This document shows, piece by piece, positions 17,921 to 40,600 of a stretch of DNA of 56,570 nt. The notes beneath the pieces are model-generated. The model searched no databases and had not been told where the DNA came from. It saw nothing but the letters and a program-made list of their open reading frames with translations. The translations under genes were made by a program, and so were the position numbers. Origin of the DNA: an uncultured Methanosarcinales archaeon (GTDB lineage: Archaea > Nanobdellota > Nanobdellia > Woesearchaeales > ARS49); NCBI GenBank assembly GCA_964572035.1, contig CAZNDX010000005.1:1-56570 (forward strand), read 5' to 3'. Every line of letters begins with the position of its first letter. Position 1 is the stretch's first letter.

Positions 17921-17928
17921 TTTATAAA
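17921..17928. promoter_or_regulatory. Palindromic TATA box shared by two divergent genes
   Basis: TTTATAAA lies exactly 22 nt from ATG 17898 (minus) and 22 nt from GTG 17951 (plus). Confidence 0.75.
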
Positions 17929-17950
17929 GGTTTTCGGAGTGAGGAAGCTT

Positions 17951-21135: not shown

Positions 21136-22194
21136 TTAAGCGTCTTTGACGCCTTGTTCTGTTACTTGGAAGATTGCTTCTCCTTCTGGCATGCTTGGCG
21201 AGTCAACCATTTTCGCGACTCTTGTTCCTTTTTTGCCTCGGCGAAGGTATAATCTGTATGTGCTGTTGTGCGCAACGACGTGGCCTCCGATTGCCTCGGT
21301 TGGGTCGCCGAAGAACTGATCTGGTTTTGACATTACTTGATTGGTAACATAAACTGCCAGGTTGTGTTTCTCTGCGAGTTTCATCAACGCGTGCATGTGT
21401 TTGTTGATTCTTTGTTGTCTGTCTGCGAGTGTTCCTCTTCCAATGAATTCCGCTCTAAAGTGGGCGGTTAAGGAGTCAACAACAACCAACTTTACATTAA
21501 TTCCTTGCTTAATCAAGTCTTCAACTTTTTCGGCGAGAAGCATTTGGTGGTCTGAATTGAATGCTCTTGCGACTTTGATGTTTTTTAGCGCTGTTTGTGG
21601 GTCTAATCCACATCCTTCAGCGATTTGTTTAATTCGTTCCGGTCTGAATGTTCCTTCTGTATCTATATAGACAGCTGCGCCTTCAGCTCCTCCTTTTTCT
21701 TTTGGAAGCTGTACTCTTACCGCAAGTGTGTGCGCAATTTGTGATTTTCCTGAGCCGTATTGTCCGTACGCTTCAGTTATTGCGCCTGTTTCAAACCCGC
21801 CCATCATTAGAGTGTCAAACTCTTTACTGCCTACTGTGATTTTCATCATTTGTTCGCGCTTTTTAAGTAATTCTTCGCCTGTGGTGAATTCCATCTCCAA
21901 GTTTGCGCGTGCGATTGCGATTATTTTTTTGGCTGTCGCTTCTGATAATTCAGTTGCGCCAACTATTTCTCCAGGCGTAGCTACTGCAATTGATAGCAAG
22001 TCGTTGAATCCTGCTGCTGATAGTTTTTCTATGCTTGCGGGTCCTACTCCTGGAAGGTCTTCTACGCTTGAGATTTTCTTTTTTGGCTTTTCTTCATCCA
22101 TTTCTGTTGGTTTTTTCATGATTTCAACCGTTCCTTCTGGAGTATCAATAACTAGTGTGTTTTCTTCGTTGTCTATATACTTTTTGTTTGCCAT
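21136..22194 (-). CDS. radA: DNA repair and recombination protein RadA
   Basis: HhH N-domain (LPGVGPA), Walker A GQYGSGKS, YIDTEGTFRPER, VDSLTAHFRAEFIGRG, AVYVTNQV. SD GAAGGTGA. Confidence 0.98.
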   Translation of the reverse strand: MANKKYIDNEENTLVIDTPEGTVEIMKKPTEMDEEKPKKKISSVEDLPGVGPASIEKLSAAGFNDLLSIAVATPGEIVGATELSEATAKKIIAIARANLEMEFTTGEELLKKREQMMKITVGSKEFDTLMMGGFETGAITEAYGQYGSGKSQIAHTLAVRVQLPKEKGGAEGAAVYIDTEGTFRPERIKQIAEGCGLDPQTALKNIKVARAFNSDHQMLLAEKVEDLIKQGINVKLVVVDSLTAHFRAEFIGRGTLADRQQRINKHMHALMKLAEKHNLAVYVTNQVMSKPDQFFGDPTEAIGGHVVAHNSTYRLYLRRGKKGTRVAKMVDSPSMPEGEAIFQVTEQGVKDA

Positions 22195-25274: not shown

Positions 25275-26054
25275 TTATAGAGTAGGGCTTGTTTGGCTTG
25301 TTTTTTCCATTTTTATTGTGAAACATATTCTTTGGTGGAATGTTGTTCCAAAGAATTCTTGTGTCGATATCGGTATTATAAGGTTGTAGAAGTTGGGGGT
25401 TGCTGTTTCGTTTATTGCCCATCCATAAATGTCGGTGAAAACTTTGCTGCATTCTGCGGGGTTTTGATTTTTGTCGCAGATTTTCGTTATTGTTCCTATT
25501 GTGTCTGCCCAGCTTTCATATTCGCGTAGTTTGTTTGCTCTGTCAATTTCAACTACAGGTCTGTAACTGAATTGTCCAACATCGTCAACGAAGTTTATCG
25601 TTATTTGTTTTTTCGAGCTGACTAGTATGTCTGTTCCATCAACTCCCAGTAAAAAGTCTGTTTCTATTGGCTCGAATCCTTCATCTTGTCCAAGGTATGA
25701 GAGGTATGGTTTTAGGTAATAGTTGAATCTGTTTGTTAGCTCTGGTTCGAATGTTTCAGGCAGTCGGGGCGCTGTGCATTCTTGTGGGTTGGGTTCTTCT
25801 GTTTGTGAGCTTGTTATTTTCGCGTTTAATACGTCAAGCAAAGCGCTGTCAAACGCTTCTTTGCTGGCTGTTTTCAAATATGATTCAAAGAACTTCATTT
25901 CGTTGTTTGTGTTTAATATTTTTGTCTGGTGTTCTCCCAGTGTTGAGACTTGGTTGAATTTTGTTTGTACTTGGATGAATATTATGACTAGTCCTATTAT
26001 TACAACAAGCAATAGAAGCGCGGCGTAATCAATTCCTTTTTTGTTCAAACGCAC
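25275..26054 (-). CDS. Pilin-like protein, class III signal peptide (KKG|IDY)
   Basis: Basic leader, G cleavage site, 20-aa hydrophobic helix and soluble domain with Cys. The start may be TTG 26048, overlapping the upstream TGA. Confidence 0.7.
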   Translation of the reverse strand: MRLNKKGIDYAALLLLVVIIGLVIIFIQVQTKFNQVSTLGEHQTKILNTNNEMKFFESYLKTASKEAFDSALLDVLNAKITSSQTEEPNPQECTAPRLPETFEPELTNRFNYYLKPYLSYLGQDEGFEPIETDFLLGVDGTDILVSSKKQITINFVDDVGQFSYRPVVEIDRANKLREYESWADTIGTITKICDKNQNPAECSKVFTDIYGWAINETATPNFYNLIIPISTQEFFGTTFHQRICFTIKMEKTSQTSPTL

Positions 26055-26512
26055 ACCTCTGAGAATAAGTATATTTTTTGTGGAGGTAATGGTATGTATC
26101 TTCCTTCGTTATATGTTGATTGGGCTGTGTAAAAGTATGTGTTGAAGTTTTTGTTGCAGTTTTCTGAGTCCGTTTTGGCTTTTACTTTGAATGTGCAGTC
26201 AACTATTGGTGGTTTTCCTTCTTTTTTATTGCAGTTTGTTACTTCAACAACATCGTATTTTTGTTTTAGAACGTCTGTTAGTTTTTGTTGTATTGATTGT
26301 GGTTCTCCTTCAAAGATTGAGGGGTTTTGGGATATTTGTTCGCTCAGGTATGTTTCCATTGATTGGAATGCAATTTCGCCGTCTATGCTGCTTTGTTGTT
26401 TGGCCGTTCCTGATATTCCCAACCAGATATAAAATATCATTATTAACAATGCTATCGCTAATGATGAAAAAATTAATGATATTGCGTCTACTTCTGCTTT
26501 TTTATTGGTCAT
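26045..26512 (-). CDS. Pilin-like protein, class III signal peptide (KKA|EVD)
   Basis: MTNKKA followed by a hydrophobic helix; three Cys. Start moved from 26536 to 26512. Confidence 0.7.
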   Translation of the reverse strand: MTNKKAEVDAISLIFSSLAIALLIMIFYIWLGISGTAKQQSSIDGEIAFQSMETYLSEQISQNPSIFEGEPQSIQQKLTDVLKQKYDVVEVTNCNKKEGKPPIVDCTFKVKAKTDSENCNKNFNTYFYTAQSTYNEGRYIPLPPQKIYLFSEVCV

Positions 26513-26945
26513 ATCGTGGCGCGTATATTTGGTCAACGTATATTGTTGGATAGCTTGTTCCTGAGACGTAAAAGAGACCTTGATAATTTTTGTAACCGAC
26601 TCCTGCTAATGGTCTCGCGTCTTCATAGTATTGTTTATTGATGTACAATGTTTCTCCTGCTTCTATTTTTACTCCAAAGTCTTTCTTCTGTGGTGTCGAG
26701 TAAGCTATCGCTTGTTTTGGATCGAAGTAGGGTTGTCCTTCTTGATATCCTAGAGTTGGTGATGTTGGCGTTAAACTATTCAATATTCTTTGTTGCATTA
26801 TTGTAGCGTCAAGATTGGTTGGTTGTACTGATGAGTTTAGAACTGATGTTGGTACGACAATTAAAGCAACTATTACAACTAATGTTAAGGGTATGTAAAA
26901 GAACCATCCTATCAAATCCCAATCAGCAAACGCTTTTTTGTTCAC
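26502..26945 (-). CDS. Pilin-like protein, class III signal peptide (KKA|FAD)
   Basis: MNKKA followed by a hydrophobic helix. GTGA overlap with the upstream gene. Confidence 0.65.
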   Translation of the reverse strand: MNKKAFADWDLIGWFFYIPLTLVVIVALIVVPTSVLNSSVQPTNLDATIMQQRILNSLTPTSPTLGYQEGQPYFDPKQAIAYSTPQKKDFGVKIEAGETLYINKQYYEDARPLAGVGYKNYQGLFYVSGTSYPTIYVDQIYAPRYDQ

Positions 26946-27790
26946 GTGCTGCCTCCCGGAATTACTACTTTTTGTATCGCGTCGTAAAACACCAGTTCAA
27001 GTCCTGGTAATAGTTCTGGTTGTTGTAGTTGTATGTATATTGCGGGCGCTTCTGTTGACGTTATTTGTTTTGTCGCGTCGTTAAACGCTAGTATTGACGT
27101 TATTGGCACAATTGAATAGCCATCAAATAATATTCTGTTTTCTCTTAGTTTTTTCGAGAAATGGCAGGCTAGATTGTTGGCATATTCTTTGTTGTTTGTG
27201 TAAATTATTAGTTGTGCTGGTCCTTTTTTGATTTCCGCGAATATTAATGGTGTCGGTCCTGTGAGCTGTATTGTTTGTTCTGTTTTCAGTTGCGTTCTGT
27301 CAACAAGATTCGCGTTAATTATAGGTAATTCTTCTTCGCAGATTATGACTGGCTCATTTTTTGGTATGTTGCTTATTTTATCCGTCATCCCAATTTGATT
27401 TTCAACTCTATAGAATAATAATGAAGTTCCCGGCTCGAAATTTCCGTAATTATTCACATATTTGTTATCTTGTGTGTAATAGAATTTGTTTCCTTCTGGC
27501 GCATCTTTTGTATATGCGGTTACTGTGTGTGGCTCGATCTTGAAACCAATGTTTTCAGGCGTCAAATAAATATAATAAAGATTCGCGTCTTTTCGAACTG
27601 AATATATGCTGTCTATCAACAATGCGGCGTCAGCGGCGTAATATTTTTGTTCATATGTCGTGTCCGAGCCTATTTTTGTTGCCGCGTTGAGTATTGTTAG
27701 CCCGACTATTCCTAAAGCTACGATTGTAATGAATAGTGGAGAAGTCATTAAGTCTATGACATTTCCTTTTTTAGCTGAGAGTAATTTCAT
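26942..27790 (-). CDS. Pilin-like protein, class III signal peptide (KKG|NVI)
   Basis: SAKKG followed by a hydrophobic helix and a 240-aa soluble domain. Confidence 0.65.
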   Translation of the reverse strand: MKLLSAKKGNVIDLMTSPLFITIVALGIVGLTILNAATKIGSDTTYEQKYYAADAALLIDSIYSVRKDANLYYIYLTPENIGFKIEPHTVTAYTKDAPEGNKFYYTQDNKYVNNYGNFEPGTSLLFYRVENQIGMTDKISNIPKNEPVIICEEELPIINANLVDRTQLKTEQTIQLTGPTPLIFAEIKKGPAQLIIYTNNKEYANNLACHFSKKLRENRILFDGYSIVPITSILAFNDATKQITSTEAPAIYIQLQQPELLPGLELVFYDAIQKVVIPGGST

Positions 27791-28247
27791 TGCAGTTGCG
27801 CGTTATTGTTACTGATGTTGGCGAGCTTCTTACAAGTGGATATGATTGCGTTACGCATACTGTTCCGCAGGTTGAACCGCAGGTGTTTTTTATTTCTGGG
27901 TATACGTTACAAATTGGTGTGTCTTGTCCTTCTGGCATAATGCATATGCAAGCATTTTTACGGCACTCCGCCGGTGAAGTTTCAGAAGAGTATACTATCA
28001 TGTTCAAATTTGAGTCTCTTTGTACAGGAACTGTGATTGATATTGGAACTCCAGGGTATGGCGCTTCAAGTAGTGCTTTGAATTCTGAATTTATTCTTTC
28101 AAAGTCTTCTATTTCTGGTGTTGTTTCTTTCGCGATAAAAGAGTTAACAAGCATTACGAAAACGGCGAATACCACAACTCCAACAATTACCCCTAAAACA
28201 ACTTTTACCAGCATCTCCATTGAGAACGCCGCTTGCCCCTTTTTCAT
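27771..28247 (-). CDS. Pilin-like protein, class III signal peptide (KKG|QAAFSME), Cys-rich C-terminus
   Basis: +1 Gln, hydrophobic helix, 8 Cys. Own TATA box TTTATAAA at 28270-28277. Confidence 0.8.
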   Translation of the reverse strand: MKKGQAAFSMEMLVKVVLGVIVGVVVFAVFVMLVNSFIAKETTPEIEDFERINSEFKALLEAPYPGVPISITVPVQRDSNLNMIVYSSETSPAECRKNACICIMPEGQDTPICNVYPEIKNTCGSTCGTVCVTQSYPLVRSSPTSVTITRNCNEITLS

Positions 28248-28280
28248 AGAAGAATATAGAGAAAGTTTGTTTATAAAGGT

Positions 28281-28580
28281 TTATGCCGTTTCACAGCATA
28301 TCTGCCCTGAGCCGCAGTCCTGCCATTTCCCTTGTGTAGAGAATACTTCCCTTCCATTAGCTTTTGCACATTGGTCAACTGTCGCGCAACTTCTGCCCAA
28401 TATCAAATTGGCGCATTTTGTTGGGTTTAGGTCTGTTTGATTTGCTATGCCTGTGTATCCTTGCGCTCCTTTTGTTACTTGTTGTCTTACAACCAATATT
28501 AGAATTATTAGCACCGCAAGTCCTAATACGACCATTACGACCGTTCCTATGGCAAATTCAGCTCCTTTTTTGTTTTTCAT
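28281..28580 (-). CDS. Short pilin-like protein (KKG|AEF), C-terminal GQICC
   Basis: Class III leader, hydrophobic helix, 6 Cys. Own TATA-like box at ~28604-28611. Confidence 0.8.
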   Translation of the reverse strand: MKNKKGAEFAIGTVVMVVLGLAVLIILILVVRQQVTKGAQGYTGIANQTDLNPTKCANLILGRSCATVDQCAKANGREVFSTQGKWQDCGSGQICCETA

Positions 28581-28613
28581 TGTTTTGAGTTATTTCTTTT
28601 GATTATTTAAAGT

Positions 28614-29240
28614 TTACTCGCAATCAAAAGGTAAGTTGCGAGCCATGTACAAATCATCTGTATCATCCAAAGTTCCCGTGTCACGTCCGCTGTCCAAGTC
28701 TGCGCAGATGAGATAAGTAATTCCGACATCTACAGTTCCGCTCTCTGTTGGGTCCTCATCGTACAAATCTTCCCATCCTGATTTAAGTCCAGCAATCACC
28801 AAATCTCTGTATGATTGAGCGTATCCTATGCTATTTTCTGGATTTTCCTTAATGATATTAACTACCTCTTTTATTGGAATATCGGTGCTTGAATCAGATA
28901 ATGAGGTTACTTCTATTTTTTCGCATTCAAAGTTTTCCGCTCCTTTTTCATTGTTTTGCGCTCTCATTCTGCTGTAACAACTTACAAGTTTTCTAGCTAT
29001 TGATAATTTAACAGAATCCGGTGTTCCTGATAATTCGTTTACAGGCAATTCGAGTTTTCCGGTACCAGCAGGAGTGCCTGTTGTGTATGTCGTGTCCGGT
29101 TTTACTGGTTTAAATGGTCCAACTTCAAATTGTTTAGTTACATAATCTTTCAGTGGAACTCCAAACACCAGTAGAACTATTATTATGAATATTATTCCAA
29201 GCGCGATTGCGAGCATTGGTGTGCTTATTCCTTTTTTCAT
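28614..29240 (-). CDS. Pilin-like protein, class III signal peptide (KKG|IST)
   Basis: Class III leader. IARKLVSCY resembles the IA..M/L.SC segment of the two upstream paralogs. Confidence 0.72.
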   Translation of the reverse strand: MKKGISTPMLAIALGIIFIIIVLLVFGVPLKDYVTKQFEVGPFKPVKPDTTYTTGTPAGTGKLELPVNELSGTPDSVKLSIARKLVSCYSRMRAQNNEKGAENFECEKIEVTSLSDSSTDIPIKEVVNIIKENPENSIGYAQSYRDLVIAGLKSGWEDLYDEDPTESGTVDVGITYLICADLDSGRDTGTLDDTDDLYMARNLPFDCE

Positions 29241-30212
29241 TTAGTCACCTATTATTGTGTGGCATTTTACTGGGACTCTCCACAAATAATTTGTGCCAAC
29301 TGTGAATAAAACAAATGGTGCGCCTATTGGTCCAAAAGCCAAAGAGCCCAATATTGCCTCGGCGTCTGTATTCGTGTACGAACCTATATAGTCTGCATAT
29401 CCGTATTGACTATTCATGTTTTCTTGTGTAGCTAGAAAATTTTTTGCGACAACTGATTCGCCAAGTTTGCTGGTTAGTTTAGAGTAGGGTGCTAAAAGAA
29501 CTGAGCCTTGCCCATTTGTATCTGCTACGAACATAACTGTAAGTGGGTCTTTTGTGGTTACGTAAGATCTGTACAAGTTTGTTTTCGCAAAATCGTCTTT
29601 GTCATCTTTTCGTAAATAATCATAAAACGTTCTTTCCTGAACAACATTTTGTTCAAGCCATGGTTTGATTGGAAAGCTTGGAATTGTTGATACATAATCG
29701 TCAAACGAGTATCTGTTGCATAATATGCATAAGTAGTCTTCGCCAAGTGTTCCTAGCGCTCCTCCGACAGCGCCTTTAACCCCAGATACAGAACCTAAGT
29801 CAAGCTGTCCTCTCCATCCTCGGTCATAGCAGCTTTTCATATCATTGGCAATCATATTCGCCAAAGCCCATTTATCTTTTCCTTCTTGTGTGTCTGTGAA
29901 TTCTTTTGCCGCGTCAGAATTTGGCGGGTATTTTGATATCGCTTGTGATGCTAAAGCAGTGTACCTTGCCAAATCATTTTGCGTTATTGTCTTTCTTGTT
30001 GTTTTGCATTCCACTGGCATTTCCTTGCCGAATCCAAACGTTACTGATTCTGCGGTTTTGCTGAGCAATAAGTTGAATTGGCATTGTGATTGTTCTCCTG
30101 AAGAGTACAATATCTCAATTAATTGTGGCATTACCGTAATTAACAGAATAACCAAAGTCGCGACTACCGCGATTACTCCTACTAGTATTCCTGGTGTTAA
30201 TCCCTTTTTCAT
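29241..30212 (-). CDS. Large pilin-like protein (KKG|LTP), paralog of 30340-31227
   Basis: Class III leader, KWALANMIANDMKSCYDRGWRGQLDL, and PWLEQNVVQERTFYDYL. Confidence 0.75.
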   Translation of the reverse strand: MKKGLTPGILVGVIAVVATLVILLITVMPQLIEILYSSGEQSQCQFNLLLSKTAESVTFGFGKEMPVECKTTRKTITQNDLARYTALASQAISKYPPNSDAAKEFTDTQEGKDKWALANMIANDMKSCYDRGWRGQLDLGSVSGVKGAVGGALGTLGEDYLCILCNRYSFDDYVSTIPSFPIKPWLEQNVVQERTFYDYLRKDDKDDFAKTNLYRSYVTTKDPLTVMFVADTNGQGSVLLAPYSKLTSKLGESVVAKNFLATQENMNSQYGYADYIGSYTNTDAEAILGSLAFGPIGAPFVLFTVGTNYLWRVPVKCHTIIGD

Positions 30213-30343
30213 CCGAATGGTAGTAGTTGTTCAGCACCTGTTCTTCCTGACTTGACTGCTAGCCAAATCAGAAATATAAGGGCGAATAGTCCTAATATTA
30301 GCGCTACAATGTACGCCCATCCCGGCAGTTCTTGTGCTTTCAT
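30209..30343 (-). CDS. Micro-pilin, 44 aa, not in the ORF track (MKA|QELPGWAYIVALILGLFALIFLIWLAVKSGRTGAEQLLPFG)
   Basis: ATGA overlaps at both ends, class III leader with +1 Gln, and one hydrophobic helix. Confidence 0.8.
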   Translation of the reverse strand: MKAQELPGWAYIVALILGLFALIFLIWLAVKSGRTGAEQLLPFG

Positions 30344-31227
30344 ACTTCACCTATGATTTTTCCGCAGATCTTTCCTGTTTCTGGTCTTTCTGTTATTAAT
30401 TCTTTTAATGGTTGCGCTGTTGCGAACGCGCCTCCGTCTTTGAATATTACGAGCATTACTGATGTTGGTTGGTTTGTGTCAACGTACGGTGAGCTGACGA
30501 AAACTCTGGTGCTAATTGATTTTATCAAAGTGTCGTCAACGTTCGGAATTCGTAGGAACGCGCTGAGCGTCGCTTTTGGTCCGTATATTTTTACTGATTG
30601 CCAAAAGTCAACATCAAACAACGCGGAAGAAAGATAATCGTAATATGTTCTTCCCCCAATAATATTGTTTTCAAGCCAAGGATACAATTCCATTTGTATG
30701 TTCATGTTTTTTACATCTTCAGTGTATTCTATTCTTGAACAGTATAGACAGAGGGCTCCGGATGGAGGATAAAAATCAAGAAGACCTGTTTGTTCCAAAT
30801 CCAGTTGTCCTTCCCATCCTTTTTTATTGCACGAAACCAGTTCGTCCGCGACTATTTTGCTTAGCGCCCATTTTCTTTGCCCTAATGCATCATTTTGATA
30901 TTCCGTAATTAATGGCGAGTTTTGTTGCAAATAAAGTTTAGTTGATTGTTCCGCAAGAGGCATTAATCTGTTTATTGCGTTTTCATCAACTTTTACTTTT
31001 TTAACTTCACAATTTACCGGAACATCTCCGTATCCGAATGATACCTTTTTTACAAGAGAGCGCAATAATAATTCTGAACTGCACTCCGCTGACCCTTCCG
31101 CGCCCCCTTCAGTTGCTCCTCTCCATTGTGGATACAATATTATGAGAAATATCACCGCGGTTGCCAGTAAGGATATCATTATCACCAGCGCTTCCGGCCC
31201 CATCCCCTTTTTGGAGGTTCTTTTCAC
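30340..31227 (-). CDS. Large pilin-like protein (KKG|MGPE), paralog of 29241-30212
   Basis: GTG start overlapping the upstream TGA, KWALSKIVADELVSCNKKGWEGQLDL, and PWLENNIIGGRTYYDYL. Confidence 0.75.
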   Translation of the reverse strand: MKRTSKKGMGPEALVIMISLLATAVIFLIILYPQWRGATEGGAEGSAECSSELLLRSLVKKVSFGYGDVPVNCEVKKVKVDENAINRLMPLAEQSTKLYLQQNSPLITEYQNDALGQRKWALSKIVADELVSCNKKGWEGQLDLEQTGLLDFYPPSGALCLYCSRIEYTEDVKNMNIQMELYPWLENNIIGGRTYYDYLSSALFDVDFWQSVKIYGPKATLSAFLRIPNVDDTLIKSISTRVFVSSPYVDTNQPTSVMLVIFKDGGAFATAQPLKELITERPETGKICGKIIGEV

Positions 31228-31337
31228 GGTAGCACCTTTGTGTTAAGAATGTACAAAACCGTAATGAATATCACAAGGCATAGAACAAGAACTATAGCGT
31301 ATTCCATAAAATGGCTTTCCGCTTCACCTTTTTTCAT
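31224..31337 (-). CDS. Micro-pilin, 37 aa, not in the ORF track (MKKG|EAESHFMEYAIVLVLCLVIFITVLYILNTKVLP)
   Basis: Class III leader plus hydrophobic helix. GTGA overlap with the next gene. TTTTTAAT box ~22 nt upstream. Confidence 0.78.
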   Translation of the reverse strand: MKKGEAESHFMEYAIVLVLCLVIFITVLYILNTKVLP

Positions 31338-31369
31338 AATAAATAAGAAAGAAAACGTGTATTAAAAAG

Positions 31370-31627
31370 TTATGCCCTTCTGCAACAGATTTGCCCGGCT
31401 CCTACGTCTTTGAAACTACCGTACAAGACATCGCAGTCTGTTCCTATTGGTTTAATTTCGTTTTCTGGCGCGCAGGTTCCTTCGCTGACGTTTCTGAGCC
31501 CCGCTCCAAATAGGTTGGTTCTTTGTTGCACCATAACGATTAGTATTATCAAAACAATAAGCCCTAGGGCGATAATAATTATGGTGTTAATCTGGAGCCC
31601 TTGTCCTTTTATGTTGTTATGCAGCAT
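31370..31627 (-). CDS. Short pilin-like protein (IKG|QGLQINTII), C-terminal GQICC
   Basis: +1 Gln and hydrophobic helix. Start set to ATG 31627 after GGAG; exact start uncertain. Confidence 0.8.
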   Translation of the reverse strand: MLHNNIKGQGLQINTIIIIALGLIVLIILIVMVQQRTNLFGAGLRNVSEGTCAPENEIKPIGTDCDVLYGSFKDVGAGQICCRRA

Positions 31628-31911
31628 TGGTCGCATCTCCATGCGGATGGGTCGGCTCCTGTTGGCATGTTTTGTGGTATGTATCCTCTGCCTAGGTTGC
31701 GCTCAAATTCTGGATTGCACGTATTCGCGCTGTAGTATCCTTCTCCGCCTGTTGGAACGTCTGCTTTGTAGCATCTTCCTGGGCAGGCGTTTGCTGCCGT
31801 GCTAAACTTGCCTATTTGTCCTGAGAATATCGCTGCGAGTACTACTAATACTAGTATTCCTAGCGCGGCGATGATAATTGTGCTGATTGGTAATCCTTGT
31901 GCTCGTTTCAT
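31609..31911 (-). CDS. Short pilin-like protein (KRA|QGLPISTII), C-terminal CDQCC
   Basis: +1 Gln, hydrophobic helix, 6 Cys. SD GAGGTG and TTTAAATA box at ~31951-31958. Confidence 0.82.
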   Translation of the reverse strand: MKRAQGLPISTIIIAALGILVLVVLAAIFSGQIGKFSTAANACPGRCYKADVPTGGEGYYSANTCNPEFERNLGRGYIPQNMPTGADPSAWRCDQCCITT

Positions 31912-31960: not shown

Positions 31961-32422
31961 TTACTTGCTGAATGAGACAGGTATACTTTCTCTCAAAAAA
32001 GCCTCGCGTTTAAGCTCGTCAAGAGTGTAGTGTATGTCTTTTTTGGTTATTTTAAACTGATTCTCAAGTTTATCTATAAAGTCTTCAAGGGAGTGCATAT
32101 CTGAAAATATGCACTCCGCGAGAAGATTCCAGCCGTTGTTTATGCGAAATAGGCTGTTTACGTGGGGGTGGTGTTCTAGGTGGGAGAATAGTTTCGCTCT
32201 ATCGTCTTGTTCCACGGCAAGTAGCACATGAGCTCTTGCTATTTGTCCTAATTGGCCAAATGACAGTAGAGCGATTGGTTTTATGAGTTCATTTTTGATG
32301 TGTTTTTTTATTCGCTCGTGGAGTGTGCTGATTGGCAGCCCTATTTTCCTTGATAGTTCGGTTAATGGCATTCTGCCGTTTTGTCTTAAGTAGGATAAAA
32401 TTGTTATGTCCGTTTTTTTCAT
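31961..32422 (-). CDS. Lrp/AsnC family transcriptional regulator
   Basis: DITILSYLRQNGRMPLTELSRKIGLPISTLHERIKK wHTH plus RAM-like C-domain. SD GGAGGA. Confidence 0.93.
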   Translation of the reverse strand: MKKTDITILSYLRQNGRMPLTELSRKIGLPISTLHERIKKHIKNELIKPIALLSFGQLGQIARAHVLLAVEQDDRAKLFSHLEHHPHVNSLFRINNGWNLLAECIFSDMHSLEDFIDKLENQFKITKKDIHYTLDELKREAFLRESIPVSFSK

Positions 32423-32486: not shown

Positions 32487-34103
32487 TTAAGAAGTATAAG
32501 GTTTCTTCAAAAACTCTTTGAAATTTTTAACATATCCCGTTAGCCTTTCTAGACTTCCTTTAGACTCGCTTGAAGAAAATTCTCGTTTCAACTGCCAAAT
32601 GTTTAAAATAATCCTATCGAGTGCGTCTTCTCTTCGGGCAGCATATTTTTGTCGGCCTGGATCAGACCAAGCACTTACCAAACAAAACAAACGATGAATT
32701 AGCGAACTTTTATAGCGAGGCCAAAGATTTTCAGAGTTTATTTCAACTCCTACTTCTTTTGACTTTGTAATGTAATGTGAGATATATTCCTTTATTTTTT
32801 TATCATCAAAAAAGGTTTCATAGTCTAATAAATTCGCCAAATCAAATGTGAACGGCACTAGGTGAGTTGCCTCAAAATCTATGGCAGTTACTTTATCAGA
32901 AATAATCCAATTCTCAGGATGCGCATCCTTATTATAAACCCAATAATCGACCGAATTAATCAAATCTGCAACAAGAGAATAGTTGTCAAGAATTCCTTGA
33001 GCTATTTTCAAAGGCAGATCAAGATTTTTATTTTTCAGCTTCGACTCTAAGTTCTCAACAATTGATAGTTTTGGAAGGTCTTTGGAAATTTTAGAATGTA
33101 GTTCTGCAAGGGAAAGTAAAACTCTTTCAACAACAACATCGCAATTCAAACGTTCAGGCCATGAATTTCGTTTTTTTAACAACTGAAACGGATTATTCAA
33201 ATAATCATTTAAAGTTTCACCAGAGCAAAACTTCATTACCAAAACGTACCTTTCATTCAAAGGCTTTTCGGATAAATAAAGAATTTGAGGTAGTTCGGCA
33301 AATTTCAATTTACTTGTCAGAAATTGTATTGTTTCCTTTTCTCTTTCAAGTTGCTTTCTATCCGCACTCTCCTTGAAAAATAAAGTTTGCTCGAAAAACT
33401 TATTATCTTCTATTTTTCTTACAACATTTCTAGTTTCTCCTATTCTTTGCCAGCTTTCTTTTTGTTGGAGAATAACTAAAGCTTTCATCCACGCTTCTTC
33501 ACTATTTTGTTTTGTTGCATCCAATAACAAGGATTCAAGAACTGATTTTTCAGACATAAAACTTTTTTCATCCGATTTTTGACTCTCAAAATACAAATTC
33601 ATTAGCGGATTTCTAAAAAAAAGTTTTTCAAACAACAATAAAGGTGCTAATTTTATTTTAAAAAAAATAGAAGAATGATCTCCATATTGCTTCGAAAATT
33701 CCATTCCATCCCTTATTACTTCGAAACACTCATCAGATTTTCCTCTAGCCGCATATCCCAAAGCGGATAAATATAGAAAGAAAGGACTCTTTGATTTATT
33801 TCCTATTTTTCTAGTTAAATTAGGAAAAGGAGTGAAGAAATAGGCCAAAAATGGCGTTTTTTGTGTTTTTGAGGTTTCAATTTTGGCCTCTTCTAATTCA
33901 TTCTCTGAATTTATCACAACTGTTTTGTCAATCAAACTTTCCAAATCAGAATCATCATTAAGTTGAGTAGAGGATAAAAATAAATCACCTATTGTGCTCC
34001 TATCGGGCTGTAATTTGTACTGTGCCCTGAACACGTTCTTAAAAAAATGCTTAGTAAATGAAAAGAGCTTGCGTTTTTGTGATTCTTGAATTTCTTCCCC
34101 CAT
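32487..34103 (-). CDS. APH/choline-kinase-like phosphotransferase with an uncharacterised N-terminal half
   Basis: FFKE (Lys), LEREKE (alphaC Glu), LVMKFCSGETL hinge, NKDAHPENW catalytic loop, IDFE and FDLANLL. Low GC. Start moved to MGEEI (34103). Confidence 0.8.
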   Translation of the reverse strand: MGEEIQESQKRKLFSFTKHFFKNVFRAQYKLQPDRSTIGDLFLSSTQLNDDSDLESLIDKTVVINSENELEEAKIETSKTQKTPFLAYFFTPFPNLTRKIGNKSKSPFFLYLSALGYAARGKSDECFEVIRDGMEFSKQYGDHSSIFFKIKLAPLLLFEKLFFRNPLMNLYFESQKSDEKSFMSEKSVLESLLLDATKQNSEEAWMKALVILQQKESWQRIGETRNVVRKIEDNKFFEQTLFFKESADRKQLEREKETIQFLTSKLKFAELPQILYLSEKPLNERYVLVMKFCSGETLNDYLNNPFQLLKKRNSWPERLNCDVVVERVLLSLAELHSKISKDLPKLSIVENLESKLKNKNLDLPLKIAQGILDNYSLVADLINSVDYWVYNKDAHPENWIISDKVTAIDFEATHLVPFTFDLANLLDYETFFDDKKIKEYISHYITKSKEVGVEINSENLWPRYKSSLIHRLFCLVSAWSDPGRQKYAARREDALDRIILNIWQLKREFSSSESKGSLERLTGYVKNFKEFLKKPYTS

Positions 34104-34126
34104 CTTACTACTGCTCAGCAACAACA

Positions 34127-34134
34127 TTTATATA
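34127..34134. promoter_or_regulatory. Bidirectional TATA box between the kinase and PhoU genes
   Basis: TTTATATA lies 23 nt from ATG 34103 (minus) and 24 nt from ATG 34159 (plus). Confidence 0.65.
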
Positions 34135-34158: not shown

Positions 34159-35061
34159 ATGAAGCGTAAAGTCATTCAGTTGGCGGGGAAAACGTATGTT
34201 GTAACTCTGCCGACCGAGTGGGTTAAGGAGTGGGGCATTAAAAAAGGTGAAGAGGTCGACGTTAAGGAAGCCGGTCCAAGGCTCATCGTCAGCACTGGCC
34301 AAACTCGTGATTTAAACCGCGGCGAAGTTGATGTCAACGGTTCTTCCGAGCGTTCTTTGCGCTGGATTCTTTCTTCTTTGCACAAAAAAGGTTACGATGA
34401 GTTTGAATTGAAAACTGAAAATCCAGAACACTCAAAAATTGTTGAGGAATTGTTGAAAGATTTGTTTCTTGGTTTTGCAATAGTCAACAAAACTTCTAAA
34501 TCAATGACTGTGCGCGCAGTATCTAGAGAGCTTGATGAACAGTTATCCGCCGTTACTAGACGCGCCTTTCTAGTTACTGTTCAAATGGCTGATGATTTGG
34601 CGAGAATCGCGAAAAGTAAAGGTTTCAATGAGCTTGAGAATGTTATCGCTCAGGAAAAAACCAACAATCAATTAACCAACTTTGTTCAAAGAATCATCAA
34701 TAAGAAAGGTCTTGACGAACCTGTCAAGAACACTTTTTTGTACGCGATTATGTGGAATTTGGAGAAAGTCGCTGACCAATTCAAGTATGTTGGAGAGCAT
34801 ATGAAGTCAAAGAAAGATGTTGACAAAAATTCTCAAGTTTTGATTGAGCGTTCCGCGAAGTTGTTGAGAGAATATTATGAGTTGTTTTACAACTTCAATG
34901 TTAAGGAATTGAGCCGTTTGTCCGATGAGTTTAAAATTTTAAGAAAAGATGTTGAATCCGAGTTAGAAAAATCAAAAAATCCTGTTTTGTTAAGTCATCT
35001 TCACGCCGCGGTTCTAAAAATAGCTGACTTCTCTTCATCAACATTCGCCCTTAACGATTAA
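34159..35061 (+). CDS. Archaeal phosphate uptake regulator (AbrB/MazE N-domain plus PhoU-like domains)
   Basis: RKVIQLAGKTYVVTLPTEWVKEWGIKKGEEV (AbrB) and helical PhoU-like repeat ending NLEKVAD. Confidence 0.85.
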   Translation: MKRKVIQLAGKTYVVTLPTEWVKEWGIKKGEEVDVKEAGPRLIVSTGQTRDLNRGEVDVNGSSERSLRWILSSLHKKGYDEFELKTENPEHSKIVEELLKDLFLGFAIVNKTSKSMTVRAVSRELDEQLSAVTRRAFLVTVQMADDLARIAKSKGFNELENVIAQEKTNNQLTNFVQRIINKKGLDEPVKNTFLYAIMWNLEKVADQFKYVGEHMKSKKDVDKNSQVLIERSAKLLREYYELFYNFNVKELSRLSDEFKILRKDVESELEKSKNPVLLSHLHAAVLKIADFSSSTFALND

Positions 35062-35549
35062 CAAAGGTCAAGCGTCAGTGTCGCGGTTCTTGCTGTTTTG
35101 ACTATTTTCCACGTGCCCCGTTCTCTTTCGCCTGTGCATTGCCCGTTTGAGGCATTCAAAGTTCTTAGCACGTCATTGTCCGGTATGCTGAATTCGTATG
35201 TGTATCCCCAGTTTCCGAATGTTTGAGAGAGTGTTGTTGAAATTATGTTTTTCGCTTTTGTGCACGTGTTCGTTCCGTCAAAGCAGTTGTTAGCGCCGAC
35301 GTATTGTCCGCCAGTGTAGCTTGAGTCCATGCAGTTTTCAAGCAGTTGGCGGACGCTTTGCTTTCCGCATTCCGTTACTGTTGTTCCTGATAATGTGCTG
35401 AGGTATGTTCTTGCTTGTATGCTTTCTTTGGTGCTTATGGTTGGTTGTTGTTTTGTTAGTATGACCACGGCAAACAATAAGCCCAGCGCTAGAAGTATGA
35501 CAATAATAACCAATCCAAAAATCTCCATCTGCCCTTTACGCATAAACAT
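35058..35549 (-). CDS. Pilin-like protein (RKG|QMEIFGL)
   Basis: Class III leader, +1 Gln, hydrophobic helix, 6 Cys. Confidence 0.82.
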   Translation of the reverse strand: MFMRKGQMEIFGLVIIVILLALGLLFAVVILTKQQPTISTKESIQARTYLSTLSGTTVTECGKQSVRQLLENCMDSSYTGGQYVGANNCFDGTNTCTKAKNIISTTLSQTFGNWGYTYEFSIPDNDVLRTLNASNGQCTGERERGTWKIVKTARTATLTLDLC

Positions 35550-36012
35550 TCACCTGCATTATTCCAAAGTCGTACGCGTCGCGAAGGGGATTGTAAATTA
35601 GTATGGGATTTTTGTTTGTCAAGTTTTGGCTGTATTCGTTCGGTATATTGTTGTACAAAATTAGGGGCGTTCCCTGTGGATAAATTGGTTGTATTGTTAT
35701 TGTGCTGTATCCGAATTCTGGGAAATATTGCTCGAGTGTTTGTTGTTCTGTTAATAATTTTGAAAAGACGTTTAGTTTGAACGCGTCCACGCAGTTGTCT
35801 CGTTGTGTTACAAGGAATGAGCAGTCTAGTTCAGGTAAGTTCAGAGCCCTTAACGTCATTTGGTATGCGTATTGGTCTTGTGCTTCTCTTTTTTCTTTTT
35901 CTACCGCGCTTGTTTGTGATGCGAAATAAAATGAAATTCCTGCGAATAATAGTACAAAAAACACGACAAGAACTCCGATGGTTTCAAACATCTTTACTTG
36001 GCCCCTCATCAA
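35536..36012 (-). CDS. Pilin-like protein (MRG|QVKMFETI)
   Basis: Class III leader, +1 Gln, hydrophobic helix, ELDCS...CVD. ATGA overlap. Confidence 0.8.
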   Translation of the reverse strand: MMRGQVKMFETIGVLVVFFVLLFAGISFYFASQTSAVEKEKREAQDQYAYQMTLRALNLPELDCSFLVTQRDNCVDAFKLNVFSKLLTEQQTLEQYFPEFGYSTITIQPIYPQGTPLILYNNIPNEYSQNLTNKNPILIYNPLRDAYDFGIMQVNVYA

Positions 36013-37121
36013 AACACCTCTGGGCAGCTTTGTTGGAGGAGTTTTCTATTTTCGGTGCCTAATCTGTTTTTCAAAAGGTCTAATGAATTAACGTCAAGTT
36101 GTCCCAGCGATGAACTTGCCATTCTGTTTTGTTGGCATAACAAATCAATTATGCTTCCAGGTATCGCGTTTTGACAAATGTCAATGTTTGGGCTTTGGCA
36201 GATTGTTATTGGCGCTCCGAAGAGACATCCGCCTTCTGTTTCTGTGCAGAGTGTTTCTTTTTGTATTTCAGCCGCCCTGTACGCTAATACTTTTGATGTT
36301 GTTGCGAGTTTTCCTAGCGCGTTTTCTATTCCGCAGGTATACATTGCTCCGTCTTGTGCGAAGATTGCTGCGTATATGCTTGTCAGTCCGATGTGCCTTT
36401 GTATGTCGTTTTCTTGGAATGTGTTTTGTCTTGTTGTTTTTGACAGGAATGTTATTGTTGTTTCACCAACTTGTATCGCTTGTGCCGCGATTCTATTAAA
36501 GTCCGTAGGAACTGTTGGATTTGTTTGTATGAATATGAATTTGTGTTCAAAGTCTTCCGCTTCCAAATTGGATAATTCTCCTACTGTGACATTCTGATAA
36601 TTGAATTGTGTTATTGTCTCATTATTTTGAACAATTGAGGGAGGTATGTTTCTGGTTAGTTCAGAATGCAGTTTTACACTATTGCTTTTTTGCGGATCGT
36701 AAACCAAATAGTATTTGTGCTCTGGGTTTGTTAAAAACAAAAAGTTTGTAACTCTGTATGGCTGTTCCCATTCCATGCTCCAGATGAAAGTATCCTGCCC
36801 TCTAATTAGTTCAGGAGAAAATATCGGCAAATTAAATTGTCTTTGGGCGTTGTCTATTTGGAATGCGCAGTCGCATCCTTGTGTGCAGCTGAATCCTATT
36901 CCTTGTCTTGGTGTTGGTATGTGCTGGGCTGTTCCGCCTTTTAGTTGGCTTTTCGCGAGGATGTCGTCAACTTGTGAAAGCACTGTATATTGCAGTCTTT
37001 CCTGCCCTACTGCTCGTTGTTTTAGGGCGAATGAAAAGAAGAATCCCAGAATGAGAGCGCCGGCAATTAATATAAATATCCAGTGAAATTGCATTTCCAC
37101 CGCTTTTTTGTTTATTGCCAT
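36009..37121 (-). CDS. Large pilin-like protein (KKA|VEMQFHWIF)
   Basis: Class III leader, hydrophobic helix, 330-aa soluble domain with Cys clusters. Confidence 0.78.
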   Translation of the reverse strand: MAINKKAVEMQFHWIFILIAGALILGFFFSFALKQRAVGQERLQYTVLSQVDDILAKSQLKGGTAQHIPTPRQGIGFSCTQGCDCAFQIDNAQRQFNLPIFSPELIRGQDTFIWSMEWEQPYRVTNFLFLTNPEHKYYLVYDPQKSNSVKLHSELTRNIPPSIVQNNETITQFNYQNVTVGELSNLEAEDFEHKFIFIQTNPTVPTDFNRIAAQAIQVGETTITFLSKTTRQNTFQENDIQRHIGLTSIYAAIFAQDGAMYTCGIENALGKLATTSKVLAYRAAEIQKETLCTETEGGCLFGAPITICQSPNIDICQNAIPGSIIDLLCQQNRMASSSLGQLDVNSLDLLKNRLGTENRKLLQQSCPEVF

Positions 37122-37609
37122 GCGCTGATTTTTGCTTTTCTTCCTGTGCCTTCAAGTTTTAGCGTGACGCCGTTGTTGTTTGGAACGCAGACGTATCCTC
37201 CGTCTACTGTTATTTCAGTCATGGAGAGTCCTGGTGTCCTTGGCACTGTGAATACGTTTTCGCTTCCTGCTTTGCAGGCGTCTATTCCCCATAGTACTTT
37301 TGTGTCTTGGTTTGGTTCAGGTAAATTTGCATCTGTTAAGCTTCCGCAGGTTTCGTAATCAAAGAAGCATATTGCGTCATATTCCGCGGGCAGTTTCAAA
37401 ATTAGTTTGCGAATGCTTCCTTGGCTTCTTTTAATGCCCTCCACCGCGACGTCTAGGTCTGTTTTTATATCTACCATTACAACTTCCTGCTGTCGTTCCA
37501 AAAAATAGCTGACTGCTTTGTAGCCGTAGGAAATAATTAGTACGAAAATTAGTCCCGCGAGTATGAATATGAATACTTGTCCTATCATTTCTGCTTTATT
37601 TTTTGCCAT
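37112..37609 (-). CDS. Pilin-like protein (NKA|EMIGQVFIF)
   Basis: Class III leader, hydrophobic helix, 4 Cys. Confidence 0.78.
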   Translation of the reverse strand: MAKNKAEMIGQVFIFILAGLIFVLIISYGYKAVSYFLERQQEVVMVDIKTDLDVAVEGIKRSQGSIRKLILKLPAEYDAICFFDYETCGSLTDANLPEPNQDTKVLWGIDACKAGSENVFTVPRTPGLSMTEITVDGGYVCVPNNNGVTLKLEGTGRKAKISAWQ

Positions 37610-40600
37610 GCCCGTATCGTTTTAGTTCTTGTTCGAATTCTTTTTTGTGTTCTTCGTAATATTCTGCGGTAATTTTGAGTTTTCTGAACAATTCTTCTAT
37701 TTCTTTTTTAGTTAGGGCTCCTTCATGCAATAACTTAAGTTTTTCAAGGAGTTCTTTTCTTTCTTGCCTGCCTGTTTCCTCAAGTATTGCGTGTAATCTT
37801 TCTATTGGGTCTTTTGATGTTTCTTTTTTGGCGAGTTTTCGCAATCTTTCGAGCGCCGCTTCGAATTTTTTGGGTGGTATTGGTTTTTTCTTGATTTGTT
37901 TTTCAAGGTCTATCCAGTCTTTTTCCTCGAGGTCTTCTTTTTTAGCGAAGGTTCTTAGTTTGTCTAATTCTTCTGTTTTTGTGTATTCTGGTTGTTCTTT
38001 TCTTTGCGCTTTTGTTTCTTCTTTTGGTTTTGGCAAGTGTTGGTAGAGTAAGTATGCTCCTATTCCAACTCCTGCTATGGCGAACAATATCATTAATACT
38101 TTGAGGGCTCCGAGTATTATGCTTGGCGGGTGGCTTTTTGGATTGAGCGGGTCTGTTCCTTCTTCAACTTCTTTTCCGTCGTTCCATCTGTCTTTGTCCG
38201 TGTCTCGCAGGGCAGGGTTTGTGCGGAGGTCGTATTCTTGTTTGTTTGTTAGTCCGTCTTTGTCAAAGTCTGTTCCTTCGGCCGCTTCCGCGCAGTCTAT
38301 GCATCCGAAGTGGTCTAGTCTCCATTTGTCGTCTATTGTGTCTCCGAGGCTGAAGGTTTGTGATAGTCCGCATCCTTTTTCATCAACTTGTTCCCCTACT
38401 GGTGTTCCGAGGCACGCGTCGAATGGGTCGTATATTCCGTCGTAGTCTTCGTCGCCTACTGGTTTATCTGTGCAAATGTTGAATTGTATGTCGCACTTTA
38501 GTCCGTCCGCGCAGTCTTCGTTGACTTCACAGGCGCTCTTTGCCGGGCATAGAGTTGGGCACGCTCTTCCGCAATCCACTCCTGCTTCTCCGACATCGAG
38601 TTGTCCGTTGCTGCAGTGGCTTGCGTCTTCGCAAACTTTGCTGTCGTATCCGCAATATCCTGTTTCACAGTCGGAGTGTAATATGCATTCTTGTCCTTGC
38701 GTGCAGGCGCTGCAGGTTGTTCCTCCGCAGTCTACGTCTGTTTCGAATCCGTTTTTAACTTCGTCATCGCACACCGCTAGTGTGCATACGTCGTTTACAC
38801 AGCTGTTTGTTTCGCAGTCGCCGTCAACAACGCACGCTTTTCCTATCGCGCAGGATGAGCATTCGCTTCCGCCGCAGTCTTCGTCTGTTTCGTTTCCGTC
38901 AACATCCCCGTTAACGCAGGCGGCCGGTTCAAGTGTTACGTCTATTGTAACTCCGTCGCTTTCCATCTCCTCGCTGATGAGTCCTACTTTGTTTACCGCC
39001 TTTACTTTGAAAATGTACGTGCGCCCGTTGACCAAATTGAGTGGTCCGCCGTCGTTTCGTGTTCTTATGTAAGTGTAATTTCCGTCTGTTACGTTGCTGA
39101 CTAGATTACTGACAATCAATTGTCTGTTGTTTCTGTCTTGTATTGTAACAAGGTAATGGTCTATTGATGACTCTAAATCGTTTCCTTTGAATGCTGCTCG
39201 TAGTTTTGTTTTGCTCCACGATAGTTCTGGGTCTTCAAATGGTCCGTCGTCGAGCACGTATTCCATTGTTGGTGGTGTTGTATCTACCAGTACTGGTATT
39301 GTTATTGGTCCGACTTTTTCTTGTGTGCTTGGCTGCACGCAGGATACGAAGTATGTGTGTTCTCCTTCTCCTGCGACCTGTATTGGTTGCCATTGAACGT
39401 AATCTGCCGAGCAAGACCCCATGCACGTGCTTTGGTCGTCTTCTTGTGTTCCAAAGTAGCAGAATGTTCTTTTGTTTGACGCGACTCCTATTGTTACGTT
39501 TGTCGTGCTGAATCCTCTTGGTGTTACGCTTGTTATGTTGAGGTCCAAGCTGAGGTCCACAACGACGTCAAATTCAGCGGGCTCAGAGACTAGTTGGTTT
39601 GTCGCTTTGCAGGATATGTAGTATCTGTATGTTCTTTCTTCTGTTACGTTGATTTGTGCGCTGTGTGTTGTTTTTGGTACTAAATCATATCCCGGGAACT
39701 GTCCTGTCATTTGTGAGAATTGTGATGTTGTTGTGCTGTATTTGCAGAATCCTGGTTTGTCAAGTTCTACTTTCATTGTTGTGACGTACAGGTCTTTGTC
39801 CGGGAGATATTTCTCGGCAATGATTGGTGGCTCTGCTATTACGCGTTTGATTACGGGCGGTTCCGTATCGAGTGTTATGGTGAATGTTTTTTGGTTTATT
39901 CCCCAGTTTGTTCTGCAGTACGCGTGCAGTTGCGCGCTTTCTACTCCGCTTGGTATTGTTAGTTGTTGTGATGTGTGTTTGTTTCCTGCGTCGGTGAATT
40001 TTTGGAATAGGTCGAAATCGCTTGCGTTTGGCGCTGTTGGCGTATTGTATATGTATGCGCATTCCGCTGGCAGTTCTGTTTCTATTTCGGCGATGAATTG
40101 TGAGGTGTTTGCAGAGCCGAATGGAGGCACGGTCATTCGCATGTCTGGGGCTCTTGTTGCCATGTAGAATTGTGTTCTTGCTTCTATTGGCAAATTGTTG
40201 TAGCCTCGTGCGTAAACGTGTATTGCGTTTGTTCCTCCGCTTATGTTTCCTACGCGCGCTTTGTAGTTTATTTTATCCGTGCTGGTCAGGACTGGTTTTA
40301 TGCTTCGTGGTGTTTCAAGTATTGAGAAGTCTAAGTATCTCATTGATATTACGTCAGCTACATCGAGTTGTACAGGTTTGCTGAAAGTTAGATTGACATC
40401 AATCTGAGAAGTGTTTAGTATCGCGTTCGCGGGTTGTATTGTTACTGTTGGCGCGACATTGTCTACGATTAGCGTGTATGTTGGTCCAGGTGGTGTGAAG
40501 AATATGTTTTTGTCATTTTTGCCGTTGAAACCGAATGTATACGTTCCTAATGTTAGAGTTGGAGCGGCAAATGTGTGGCTTAGTTGCATTCCTGATGTTT

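Follow-up and report, generated by a model that had tools for sequence, protein, structure and literature searches.

The window analysed here is a 56,570-nucleotide (nt) stretch of contig CAZNDX010000005.1 (assembly GCA_964572035.1), deposited as an uncultured Methanosarcinales archaeon and placed by GTDB in the Woesearchaeales. It carries on the minus strand (25275-31911) a pilin-like operon of 13 consecutive open reading frames (ORFs) whose N-termini resemble archaeal class III (prepilin) signals. Nearly all of them have a short basic leader with [KR][GA] at the start, after which come ~20 hydrophobic residues, for example MKRAQGLPISTIII..., MKKGLTPGILVGV... and MKKGISTPMLAIALG... Two tiny ORFs at this locus, which we call micro1 (44 amino acids, aa) and micro2 (37 aa), are the subject of this work. 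A first-pass annotation of the same DNA had described them as micro-pilins missed by its ORF track. The coordinates, peptides and ATGA and GTGA overlaps that it reported were confirmed on the sequence. The ORFs are indeed absent from that track, but their exact peptides are already present in NCBI, JGI/IMG and Logan, either unnamed or as 'hypothetical protein', and the window copy of micro1 is the representative of its 90% cluster.

The micro1 ORF (30209..30343, minus strand, read from 30343 to 30209) encodes MKAQELPGWAYIVALILGLFALIFLIWLAVKSGRTGAEQLLPFG, in which the leader MKA and QELPGW are followed by a 22-residue transmembrane (TM) helix, KSG and a short amphipathic tail. At both ends the ORF overlaps a larger one as ATGA, its ATG with the TGA of a 295-aa ORF (big1, 30340..31227, minus) and its TGA with the ATG of a 323-aa ORF (big2, 29241..30212, minus). 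An in-frame TGA two codons 5' of the ATG limits the ORF to 44 aa. The micro2 ORF (31224..31337, minus, read from 31337 to 31224) encodes MKKGEAESHFMEYAIVLVLCLVIFITVLYILNTKVLP, consisting of MKKG, a short polar stretch (..MEY), a TM helix and a basic tail KVLP; its TGA overlaps the GTG start of big1 (GTGA). The class-III-like big1 gene is the conserved partner bracketed by both tiny ORFs, and micro2 is the first gene of a tightly coupled sub-operon, with junctions of -4/-4/-4/0 nt along micro2, big1, micro1, big2 and a 208-aa gene. No other small TM ORFs are located between genes on the coding strand; the remaining small hydrophobic ORFs of the window are all on the plus strand.

A TATA-like box, TTTTTAATA (31360..31368, minus), directly follows the stop codon of the upstream 90-aa gene. 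Its 3' end lies 22 nt upstream of the micro2 ATG, as the first-pass annotation had it, and its centre ~27 nt upstream; the motif and its spacing are kept in all seven distinct loci of close relatives. Because this position fits the usual archaeal distance between TATA box and transcription start site, a leaderless or near-leaderless transcript could start at micro2. Within the sub-operon, an AAGGTG motif (31233..31238, minus) that resembles a Shine-Dalgarno sequence for big1 is contained in the K-V codons of the micro2 C-terminal KVLP, and AAGGT(G/A/T) is conserved 5 nt before the ATG, GTG or TTG start of the large gene. The similar motif for micro1, GGTGA (30347..30351, minus), lies within the last big1 codons (IGEV). 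The gene ends with ATA GGT GAA GTA TGA (I-G-E-V-stop), which places GGTGA just before the micro1 ATG. The sequence ataGGTGAagtATG is kept in six of the seven close loci; the remaining one (L008), in which micro1 does not overlap the large gene, lacks the motif. We read both motifs as probable Shine-Dalgarno elements. Since its K-V codons double as such a motif, part of the C-terminal conservation of micro2 likely acts at the nucleotide level. The start codon of big1 (31225-31227 in the window) varies between GTG, TTG and ATG in L001, L002, L004-L006 and L008 and always overlaps the micro2 TGA, a pattern consistent with termination-reinitiation coupling.

Both micro1 and micro2 are genuine genes under strong purifying selection. 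All seven close loci, taken from the contigs of the relatives of the 295-aa protein, keep both frames undisrupted and in place. A micro1 homologue and a 33-47 aa positional analogue of micro2 are present in each of 11 more distant loci with enough flanking sequence, namely L089 (identical to L098 and L100), L090, L091, L095, L097, L103, L105 and L107-L110. The ratio of non-synonymous to synonymous substitution rates (dN/dS, Nei-Gojobori, all pairs) is 0.007-0.20 for micro1, 0.05-0.55 for micro2 and 0.12-0.45 for the 295-aa gene. When the window is compared with L002, the micro1 genes differ by 17 synonymous and no non-synonymous codons, and the large proteins are only ~60% identical. By these comparisons micro1 is the most conserved element of the operon. 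The check proposed in the first-pass annotation, that relatives should retain the frames with dN/dS below 1, turned out in favour of both genes, with the whole range lying at 0.007-0.55.

Gene callers in several relatives absorb the micro-ORFs into over-extended neighbours, leaving the tiny genes hidden, 'fused'-looking and easily lost from annotation. An apparent fusion of micro1 with the large gene in L006 and L007 (a 372-aa gene) was rejected, because both loci keep the micro1 frame uninterrupted, and the caller had extended the large gene upstream, in another frame that runs across micro1 (L006 4899-6017; L007 2186-3304). The 311-aa calls for relatives of the 295-aa protein (P0009 and P0010) have an N-terminal extension that would cross the micro2 slot, and they also look like over-extensions.

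The gene order is the same in all 11 distant loci. An Lrp/AsnC regulator is followed by one or two pilin-like genes (~90-115 aa), a tiny ORF, a single large gene (286-360 aa) and a micro1-family gene that overlaps the large gene at its 3' end. The next gene varies; it encodes a pilin-like protein of 177-215 aa or a class-III-like giant of 1100-1150 aa, or else an unrelated gene pair is inserted. The conserved unit is therefore a triad of a tiny ORF, one large pilin-like gene and a gene of the 44-aa family. The two large paralogues of the window, which share 33% identity over 237 aa, are confined to its narrow clade, where the close loci whose downstream flank was read through carry big2. The single large gene of the distant loci is ~25-33% identical to both (~25-32% to big1); it is slightly closer to the 323-aa copy, and either copy could be the original. 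The proposal of the first-pass annotation, a coupling of each micro-pilin with the large pilin next downstream, holds for micro2, which precedes the large gene, but has to be revised for micro1. The constant partner of micro1 is the large gene before it; what comes after it differs from locus to locus, and the two large genes of the window are clade-specific paralogues.

Several additional observations concern the genes downstream of the triad. The 208-aa class-III-like protein of the window (28614..29240, minus) is an orthologue of the 177-215 aa gene found right after micro1 in many distant loci. The giant of 1100-1150 aa directly follows the micro1-family gene in two loci (L105 4116-7562; L107 3724-7038). 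In one subclade, the unrelated gene pair (174-179 aa and 134-151 aa, without a TM N-terminus) separates the micro1-family gene from the pilin-like gene that comes next (L095 4170-5099; L097 3000-3984; L101 811-1798), and it resembles a small cassette of mobile or toxin-antitoxin-like type. An 875-kb relative, contig Ga0247727_10000001, has a counterpart of the 282-aa pilin-like ORF of the window (L090 7566-8516) with a Pfam match to Amidase_3 (N-acetylmuramoyl-L-alanine amidase). This match hints that some operon subunits may carry cell-wall-degrading heads.

The large partner belongs to a narrow family. Among 5.8 billion clustered proteins the 295-aa protein has eight relatives (8 clusters, 49-94% identity), and a pattern scan of the GTDB species-representative genomes for this family found no relative. 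The AlphaFold2 model of big1 consists of a long helix at the N-terminus (residues 11-39) and a head of mixed alpha/beta structure; its mean predicted local distance difference test score (pLDDT) is 74.6. The head is Cys-rich, with six invariant cysteines. Comparison with PDB gave nothing below E=1 either by Foldseek or by a sequence profile search, and the head gives no functional lead. The size, cysteine content and class-III-like N-terminus would fit a minor pilin or an adhesin-type subunit.

The micro1 family is wider. Searched with a profile of micro1 variants, the collection of 5.8 billion proteins yielded 28 clusters (43-66 aa), some of them carrying NCBI names from metagenome-assembled genomes of Woesearchaeota or Nanoarchaeia. 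Among 1.84 billion cluster representatives, searched exhaustively with HMMER, 66 micro1-family proteins were recovered at E<=1e-3, all of 41-71 aa; in none of the 66 is the family a domain of a larger protein. It is a stand-alone small-protein family of Woesearchaeota/Nanoarchaeia-type assemblies. In the loci with enough flank the micro1-family gene directly follows a class-III-like gene of 286-360 aa; two divergent relatives sit on contigs of only ~1 kb.

With the invariant Trp as anchor, an alignment of 92 family members shows the pattern [KR]-[KR]-[GA]-(Q)-[ED]-[LIM]-P-G-W-x-[YF]-[IV]-[VI]-[AG]-L-I-[IL]-G-L-x-x-[LI]-x-[FL]-[LI]-I-W-[LI]-[AS]-V-K-S-G, then an amphipathic tail of ~12 residues. 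The Trp is part of a near-invariant Pro-Gly-Trp, and the TM helix (~22 residues) is very conserved. The [KR][GA] motif is found in 68 of the 92 members and [KR]x[GA] in 16 more (84/92 together), located 2-6 residues before the Trp. The putative mature part has 37-48 residues with a mode of 40-42, and is 41 aa long in the window copy. The window copy has the motif, the helix ending W-[LI]-[AS]-V-K-S-G, a length within 41-71 aa and the position after the large gene that characterize the family, for which no curated Pfam or NCBIfam entry was matched. With the family alignment, AlphaFold2 predicts micro1 to be one continuous helix (residues 8-43, mean pLDDT 84.8), in agreement with the first-pass description of essentially one hydrophobic helix without a head. 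The N side of the helix carries a mean net charge of +3.1 across the family and the C side +0.46, which favours the N-in orientation. The opposite N-out topology, suggested by the K/R right after the helix, was dropped, as the family-wide positive charge on the N side is far greater. An archaeal class III signal shows four features in combination, namely a variable basic leader, a conserved G/A at position -1, a mature part of constant length and a hydrophobic helix, and the micro1-family pattern fits such a signal.

The micro2 slot evolves fast, and ORFs this short are often not called. The micro2 family proper is narrow (4 clusters in the protein collection). In close relatives the peptide reads MK[KR]GQE..[FM]MEY, followed by a variable TM helix and K..KVLP; the window copy has a one-codon insertion (MKKGEAES...), and has MKKG|E as compared with MK[KR]G|Q in the close relatives. 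In the distant loci the slot is occupied by a 33-47 aa ORF of the same design, for example MHKRGILWEEWAWIILLLLVFGAIAVSLWKILS, MKRGAMPEVSKTLLWLTALLAFFLIIIAIVANMLKRGGG and MDKKAETPLEHIVRIALIVIVFIAIYFAVRKILGQ, and [KR][GA] is present in 9 of the 11 positional analogues. The putative mature micro2 has ~33 aa, which is under the usual range of Tad/Flp pilins.

We propose that micro1 and micro2 are headless, single-helix pilin-like partners of a large class-III-signal protein inside a type-IV-pilin-like operon, an interpretation to which we give an even chance. In this model, micro2, the large gene and micro1 would be co-translated from one, probably leaderless, sub-operon, and all three products would be inserted N-in, the tiny proteins via their short basic leader. 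A class III signal peptidase could then cut the tiny proteins after [KR][GA] (MKA|QELPGW... and MKKG|E...), yielding pilin-like subunits of ~33 (micro2) and ~41 (micro1) residues that consist of alpha1 only. Such headless subunits might be extracted from the membrane and pack helix-to-helix with alpha1 of the large, bulky-headed protein. They could be low-abundance partners or spacers, with a possible priming or capping role, that allow the large subunit to be built into or seated on a type IV-like filament.

Known systems offer partial parallels. The Tad/Flp pilins are 40-60 residues long, lack a C-terminal globular domain and form helix-only filaments (PMC10710030). An archaeal origin of Tad pili (PMC10710030; PMC6668835), from Epd-like systems (PMC6668835), has been proposed. 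Flp/Tad (type IVc) pilins such as Caulobacter crescentus PilA (PDB 8U1K) resemble the micro-ORF products in being very short and helix-only, with a hydrophobic N-half, a short polar C-end and a prepilin-type leader ending in G/A. In contrast to these pilins, the micro-ORFs have no match to Flp_Fap or Flp1_like. With respect to the Flp motif G|XXXXEY, micro2 has E-Y just before the helix but at ~+7/+8 rather than 5-6, and micro1 has no E-Y. The putative mature forms are shorter (~33 and 41 aa), although micro1 is within the 40-60 range. Neither micro gene opens a tad-like locus with CpaF/TadBC, and both are translationally coupled to a large class-III protein; because of this coupling, we argue for a minor or partner role. 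Headless pilins are an already established kind, and what is new here is a shorter pair that brackets a large pilin-like gene and departs from Flp pilins in motif spacing and model matches.

In Geobacter sulfurreducens, a short alpha1-only pilin, PilA-N, works with the polypeptide of the adjacent gene, PilA-C, which supplies the globular part. Among known systems it comes closest to a headless pilin that pairs with the product of a neighbouring gene; similarity at the sequence level is not expected. The difference is that PilA-C has no alpha1/TM helix of its own, whereas here the large partner has a class-III-like N-terminal helix and is bracketed by two tiny genes. The Geobacter split pilin is discussed in PMC10710030. 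Another parallel is provided by the minor-pilin priming or tip complexes (GspH-I-J-K, FimU-PilVWX, TcpB and Methanococcus EpdB/C), in which co-encoded low-abundance pilin-like proteins, one of them with an outsized head, start or cap the filament. In Methanococcus maripaludis, deletion of any of 11 cluster genes abolishes piliation, and removal of minor pilins lowers the amount of surface pilins (bioRxiv 10.64898/2026.04.22.720090). The known minor pilins have globular heads, and micro1 and micro2 are headless at ~33-41 residues. To our knowledge, headless minor pilins of this size have not been described, and we found no description of such ORFs in the literature searched on archaeal type IV filaments and DPANN. 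Finally, micro1 and micro2 share with archaeal class III signal proteins (FlaFind-positive; Pfam Class_IIIsignal/Pilin_N) a short basic leader ending in [KR][GA], a hydrophobic helix of ~20 residues (~22 predicted here), and the location in a long operon of similar N-termini beside an Lrp/AsnC regulator.

A number of observations weigh against the proposed pilin-like identity. The curated models of class III signal proteins are not matched. In Pfam there is no pilin match at E<=1 for micro1 or micro2, Class_IIIsignal, Pilin_N and Flp_Fap included, and in NCBIfam no archaeal pilin, Flp or class III signal match for 28 micro1-family members at E<=10. The only pilin-named NCBIfam match is weak, to the Mbov_0395-family conjugal 'pilin-like' model in 4 micro1-family members (best E 0.0032), and the rest is generic TM noise. 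When the PDB was searched with the micro1-family profile, the only matches were TM helices that are either unrelated or designed. The proposal of pilins in the first-pass annotation is partly supported, by the prepilin pattern of the micro1 family and by the 13-ORF class-III-like operon, but not by any curated pilin, Flp or class III model. A polar x-x-P-G stretch of 3-6 residues separates the putative micro1 cut site from the hydrophobic helix, unlike in archaeal class III signal proteins, and this stretch would be expected to fail the FlaFind predictor. The Pro itself appears to be a local style of the operon, since neighbouring ORFs such as MKRA|QGLP... and MKKG|LTPG... have a similar N-terminus with Pro at +3/+4. 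Sixteen members of one micro1 subclade have K/R at -3 instead of -2. The micro1-family leaders are called at 3-28 aa, lengths that depend on start-codon calls and are upper bounds. The Trp residues at both ends of the micro1 helix and the K/R just after it are typical of a membrane-retained protein as well. The two tiny proteins give an hhalign probability of only 13%, with their K-[GA]-Q-E N-termini aligned in register, and we do not claim them as paralogues.

Expression data and the neighbourhood add to these points. No clean transcript or peptide support for the micro-ORFs was found in the runs examined. The genome occurs in bioreactor or sludge samples. Metatranscriptome runs of the same studies gave nothing, one run (X32) having been compared with the window stretch. 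Three 'METAGENOMIC RNA-Seq' runs have contigs of 90-95%-identical relatives across both micro-ORFs, and these runs probably include DNA because contigs of 55-68 kb are present in them. A scan of ORFs across the window recovered no secretion ATPase (T2SSE-type), no TadC/FlaJ-type platform protein and no prepilin peptidase. As evidence against the pilin reading this is weak, because archaeal pilin genes are frequently unlinked from the assembly machinery (PMC4858521).

The main rival explanation is that micro1 and micro2 are never incorporated in a filament but remain unprocessed single-pass membrane residents, accessory helices that bind the TM helix of the large protein as a chaperone, anchor or stabiliser, or that bind a component of the assembly platform. 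We consider this less probable than the pilin-like reading, though a serious candidate. The Trp 'belt' of micro1 (invariant W9, mostly W27, with K31 and K-S-G just after), the Pro-Gly turn ahead of the helix and the missing pilin-model match are in line with it. Extreme conservation of the helix face, where positions i, i+4 and i+7 are small residues ([AG]14, G18, A21), suggests a fixed helix-helix partner, and translation coupled to that of the large gene points to a roughly stoichiometric complex. However, alpha1 is also the most conserved part of true pilins, and a simple anchor needs no conserved [KR](x)[GA] before a 'mature' part of constant length with a variable leader; moreover, the N-terminal style is shared by 13 consecutive ORFs of the operon. 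It is improbable that micro1 is instead a major Flp/Tad-like subunit, its 41-residue mature peptide forming most of a helix-only pilus in which the large proteins are minor subunits or adhesins. As the most conserved gene of the cluster and a family wider than that of the large protein, micro1 has some features expected of a major subunit, and its size, single helix, hydrophobic N-half and polar C-tail resemble Tad pilins of 40-60 residues. Yet the gene is located mid-operon, has no promoter of its own and starts within the stop of the large gene, which is unexpected for a highly expressed subunit. The polar tail (~14 residues) is too short to cover the filament surface as in Caulobacter PilA, the Flp motif and an Flp_Fap match are lacking, and the upstream Cys-rich pilin-like genes of 90-100 aa are better candidates for the major pilin.

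For micro2, a role mainly as a leader or coupling ORF, which would load ribosomes on a leaderless mRNA and allow reinitiation at the weak start of the large gene while the peptide itself is of little importance, seems more improbable still. The TATA-like box centred ~27 nt before the ATG, the stop that overlaps an ATG/GTG/TTG-variable start, the KVLP codons doubling as AAGGTG and an evolution much faster than that of micro1 all agree with such a role, but a pure coupling ORF needs no membrane helix. In very divergent loci the slot always contains a 33-47 aa ORF with M.K[KR][GA], one TM helix and a basic tail, and the dN/dS values of micro2 (0.05-0.55) show selection on the peptide. The possibility that both are spurious ORFs or pseudogene debris without a product is negligible. 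The ORFs are very short, match no family model and have no direct expression evidence, but the frames intact in every relative, dN/dS down to 0.007, the 17 synonymous against 0 non-synonymous changes in micro1 and the 66 family representatives, all small proteins, refute it for practical purposes.

Starting from the headless-partner reading, we speculate that the triad could be a new type IV filament sub-assembly, in which two processed helix-only micro-pilins are obligatory spacers or adaptors that complete the helical alpha1 core around a single adhesin-type subunit with a bulky head, located at the base or tip of a DPANN pilus. This extension is rather unlikely as it stands. If true, it would represent a general solution for mounting oversized heads on thin host-attachment filaments, with micro-pilins smaller than any described pilin. 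Woesearchaeota and other DPANN archaea are thought to depend on cell-cell contact, for which pili are prime candidates, and DPANN pilin repertoires are almost invisible to current models. The micro1 family, being the most conserved operon element, could be a sequence marker for finding such loci in metagenomes. If the tiny proteins are processed and assembled, the lower size limit of type IV pilins would be extended and archaea would be seen to pair helix-only subunits with large pilins, a point relevant to the proposed archaeal origin of Tad/Flp pili.

The remaining genes of the window are those of a piece of an archaeal chromosome with a GC content of ~0.41, encoding RadA, an RFC-type AAA+ protein, RPA, aRF1, TrmB and several aminoacyl-tRNA synthetases. 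Among species-representative genomes, the RadA genes nearest to that of the window (identity up to 85%) come mostly from metagenome-assembled genomes labelled Woesearchaeota, Nanoarchaeia or Nanoarchaeota, which are DPANN archaea. None of the ~20 pilin-like ORFs in the window, whether of the operon or of a second class-III-like group, reaches the Pfam gathering threshold. The sole pilin-type match among the other cluster members is a sub-threshold Flp1_like match on a 99-aa ORF. Upstream of micro2 are two small class-III-like proteins (100 and 90 aa; 31370..31911, minus) with Cys-rich C-termini and no Pfam match, which by their size are candidate major pilins of the cluster. Three paralogous class-III-like proteins of 90-100 aa with Cys-rich ends are encoded in the locus (31370-31911 and 28281-28580, minus); their C-terminal motifs are ..CDQCCITT, ..GQICCRRA and ..GQICCETA, and the first two genes overlap by 34 nt. 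These three paralogues are likely the major structural subunits of the locus.

The operon is preceded by an Lrp/AsnC-family regulator (31961..32422, minus; HTH_24 1.2e-11, AsnC_trans_reg), which is syntenic with the cluster in all relatives. Next to it are genes for a 546-aa protein with an APH-type kinase motif (32487-34127) and a 300-aa protein with an AbrB/MazE-type N-terminal domain (34159-35061). All three genes are syntenic with the pilin operon in the examined relatives with enough upstream flank, and they may form a regulatory set for the locus. The second group of class-III-like ORFs (35058-43789, minus) includes proteins of 163, 158, 370, 165 and 392 aa (35058-37609, 37596-42626 and 42611-46733, minus), interleaved with very large secreted proteins with Sec signals, one of 1676 aa with a Cys-rich N-terminus and one of 616 aa; it has neither Pfam matches nor micro-ORFs. 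Outside both groups, the window has two Rad51/RadA-family genes within 4 kb (17852-18631, plus; 21136-22194, minus), the full-length RadA and a shorter RadB-like paralogue of 259 aa.

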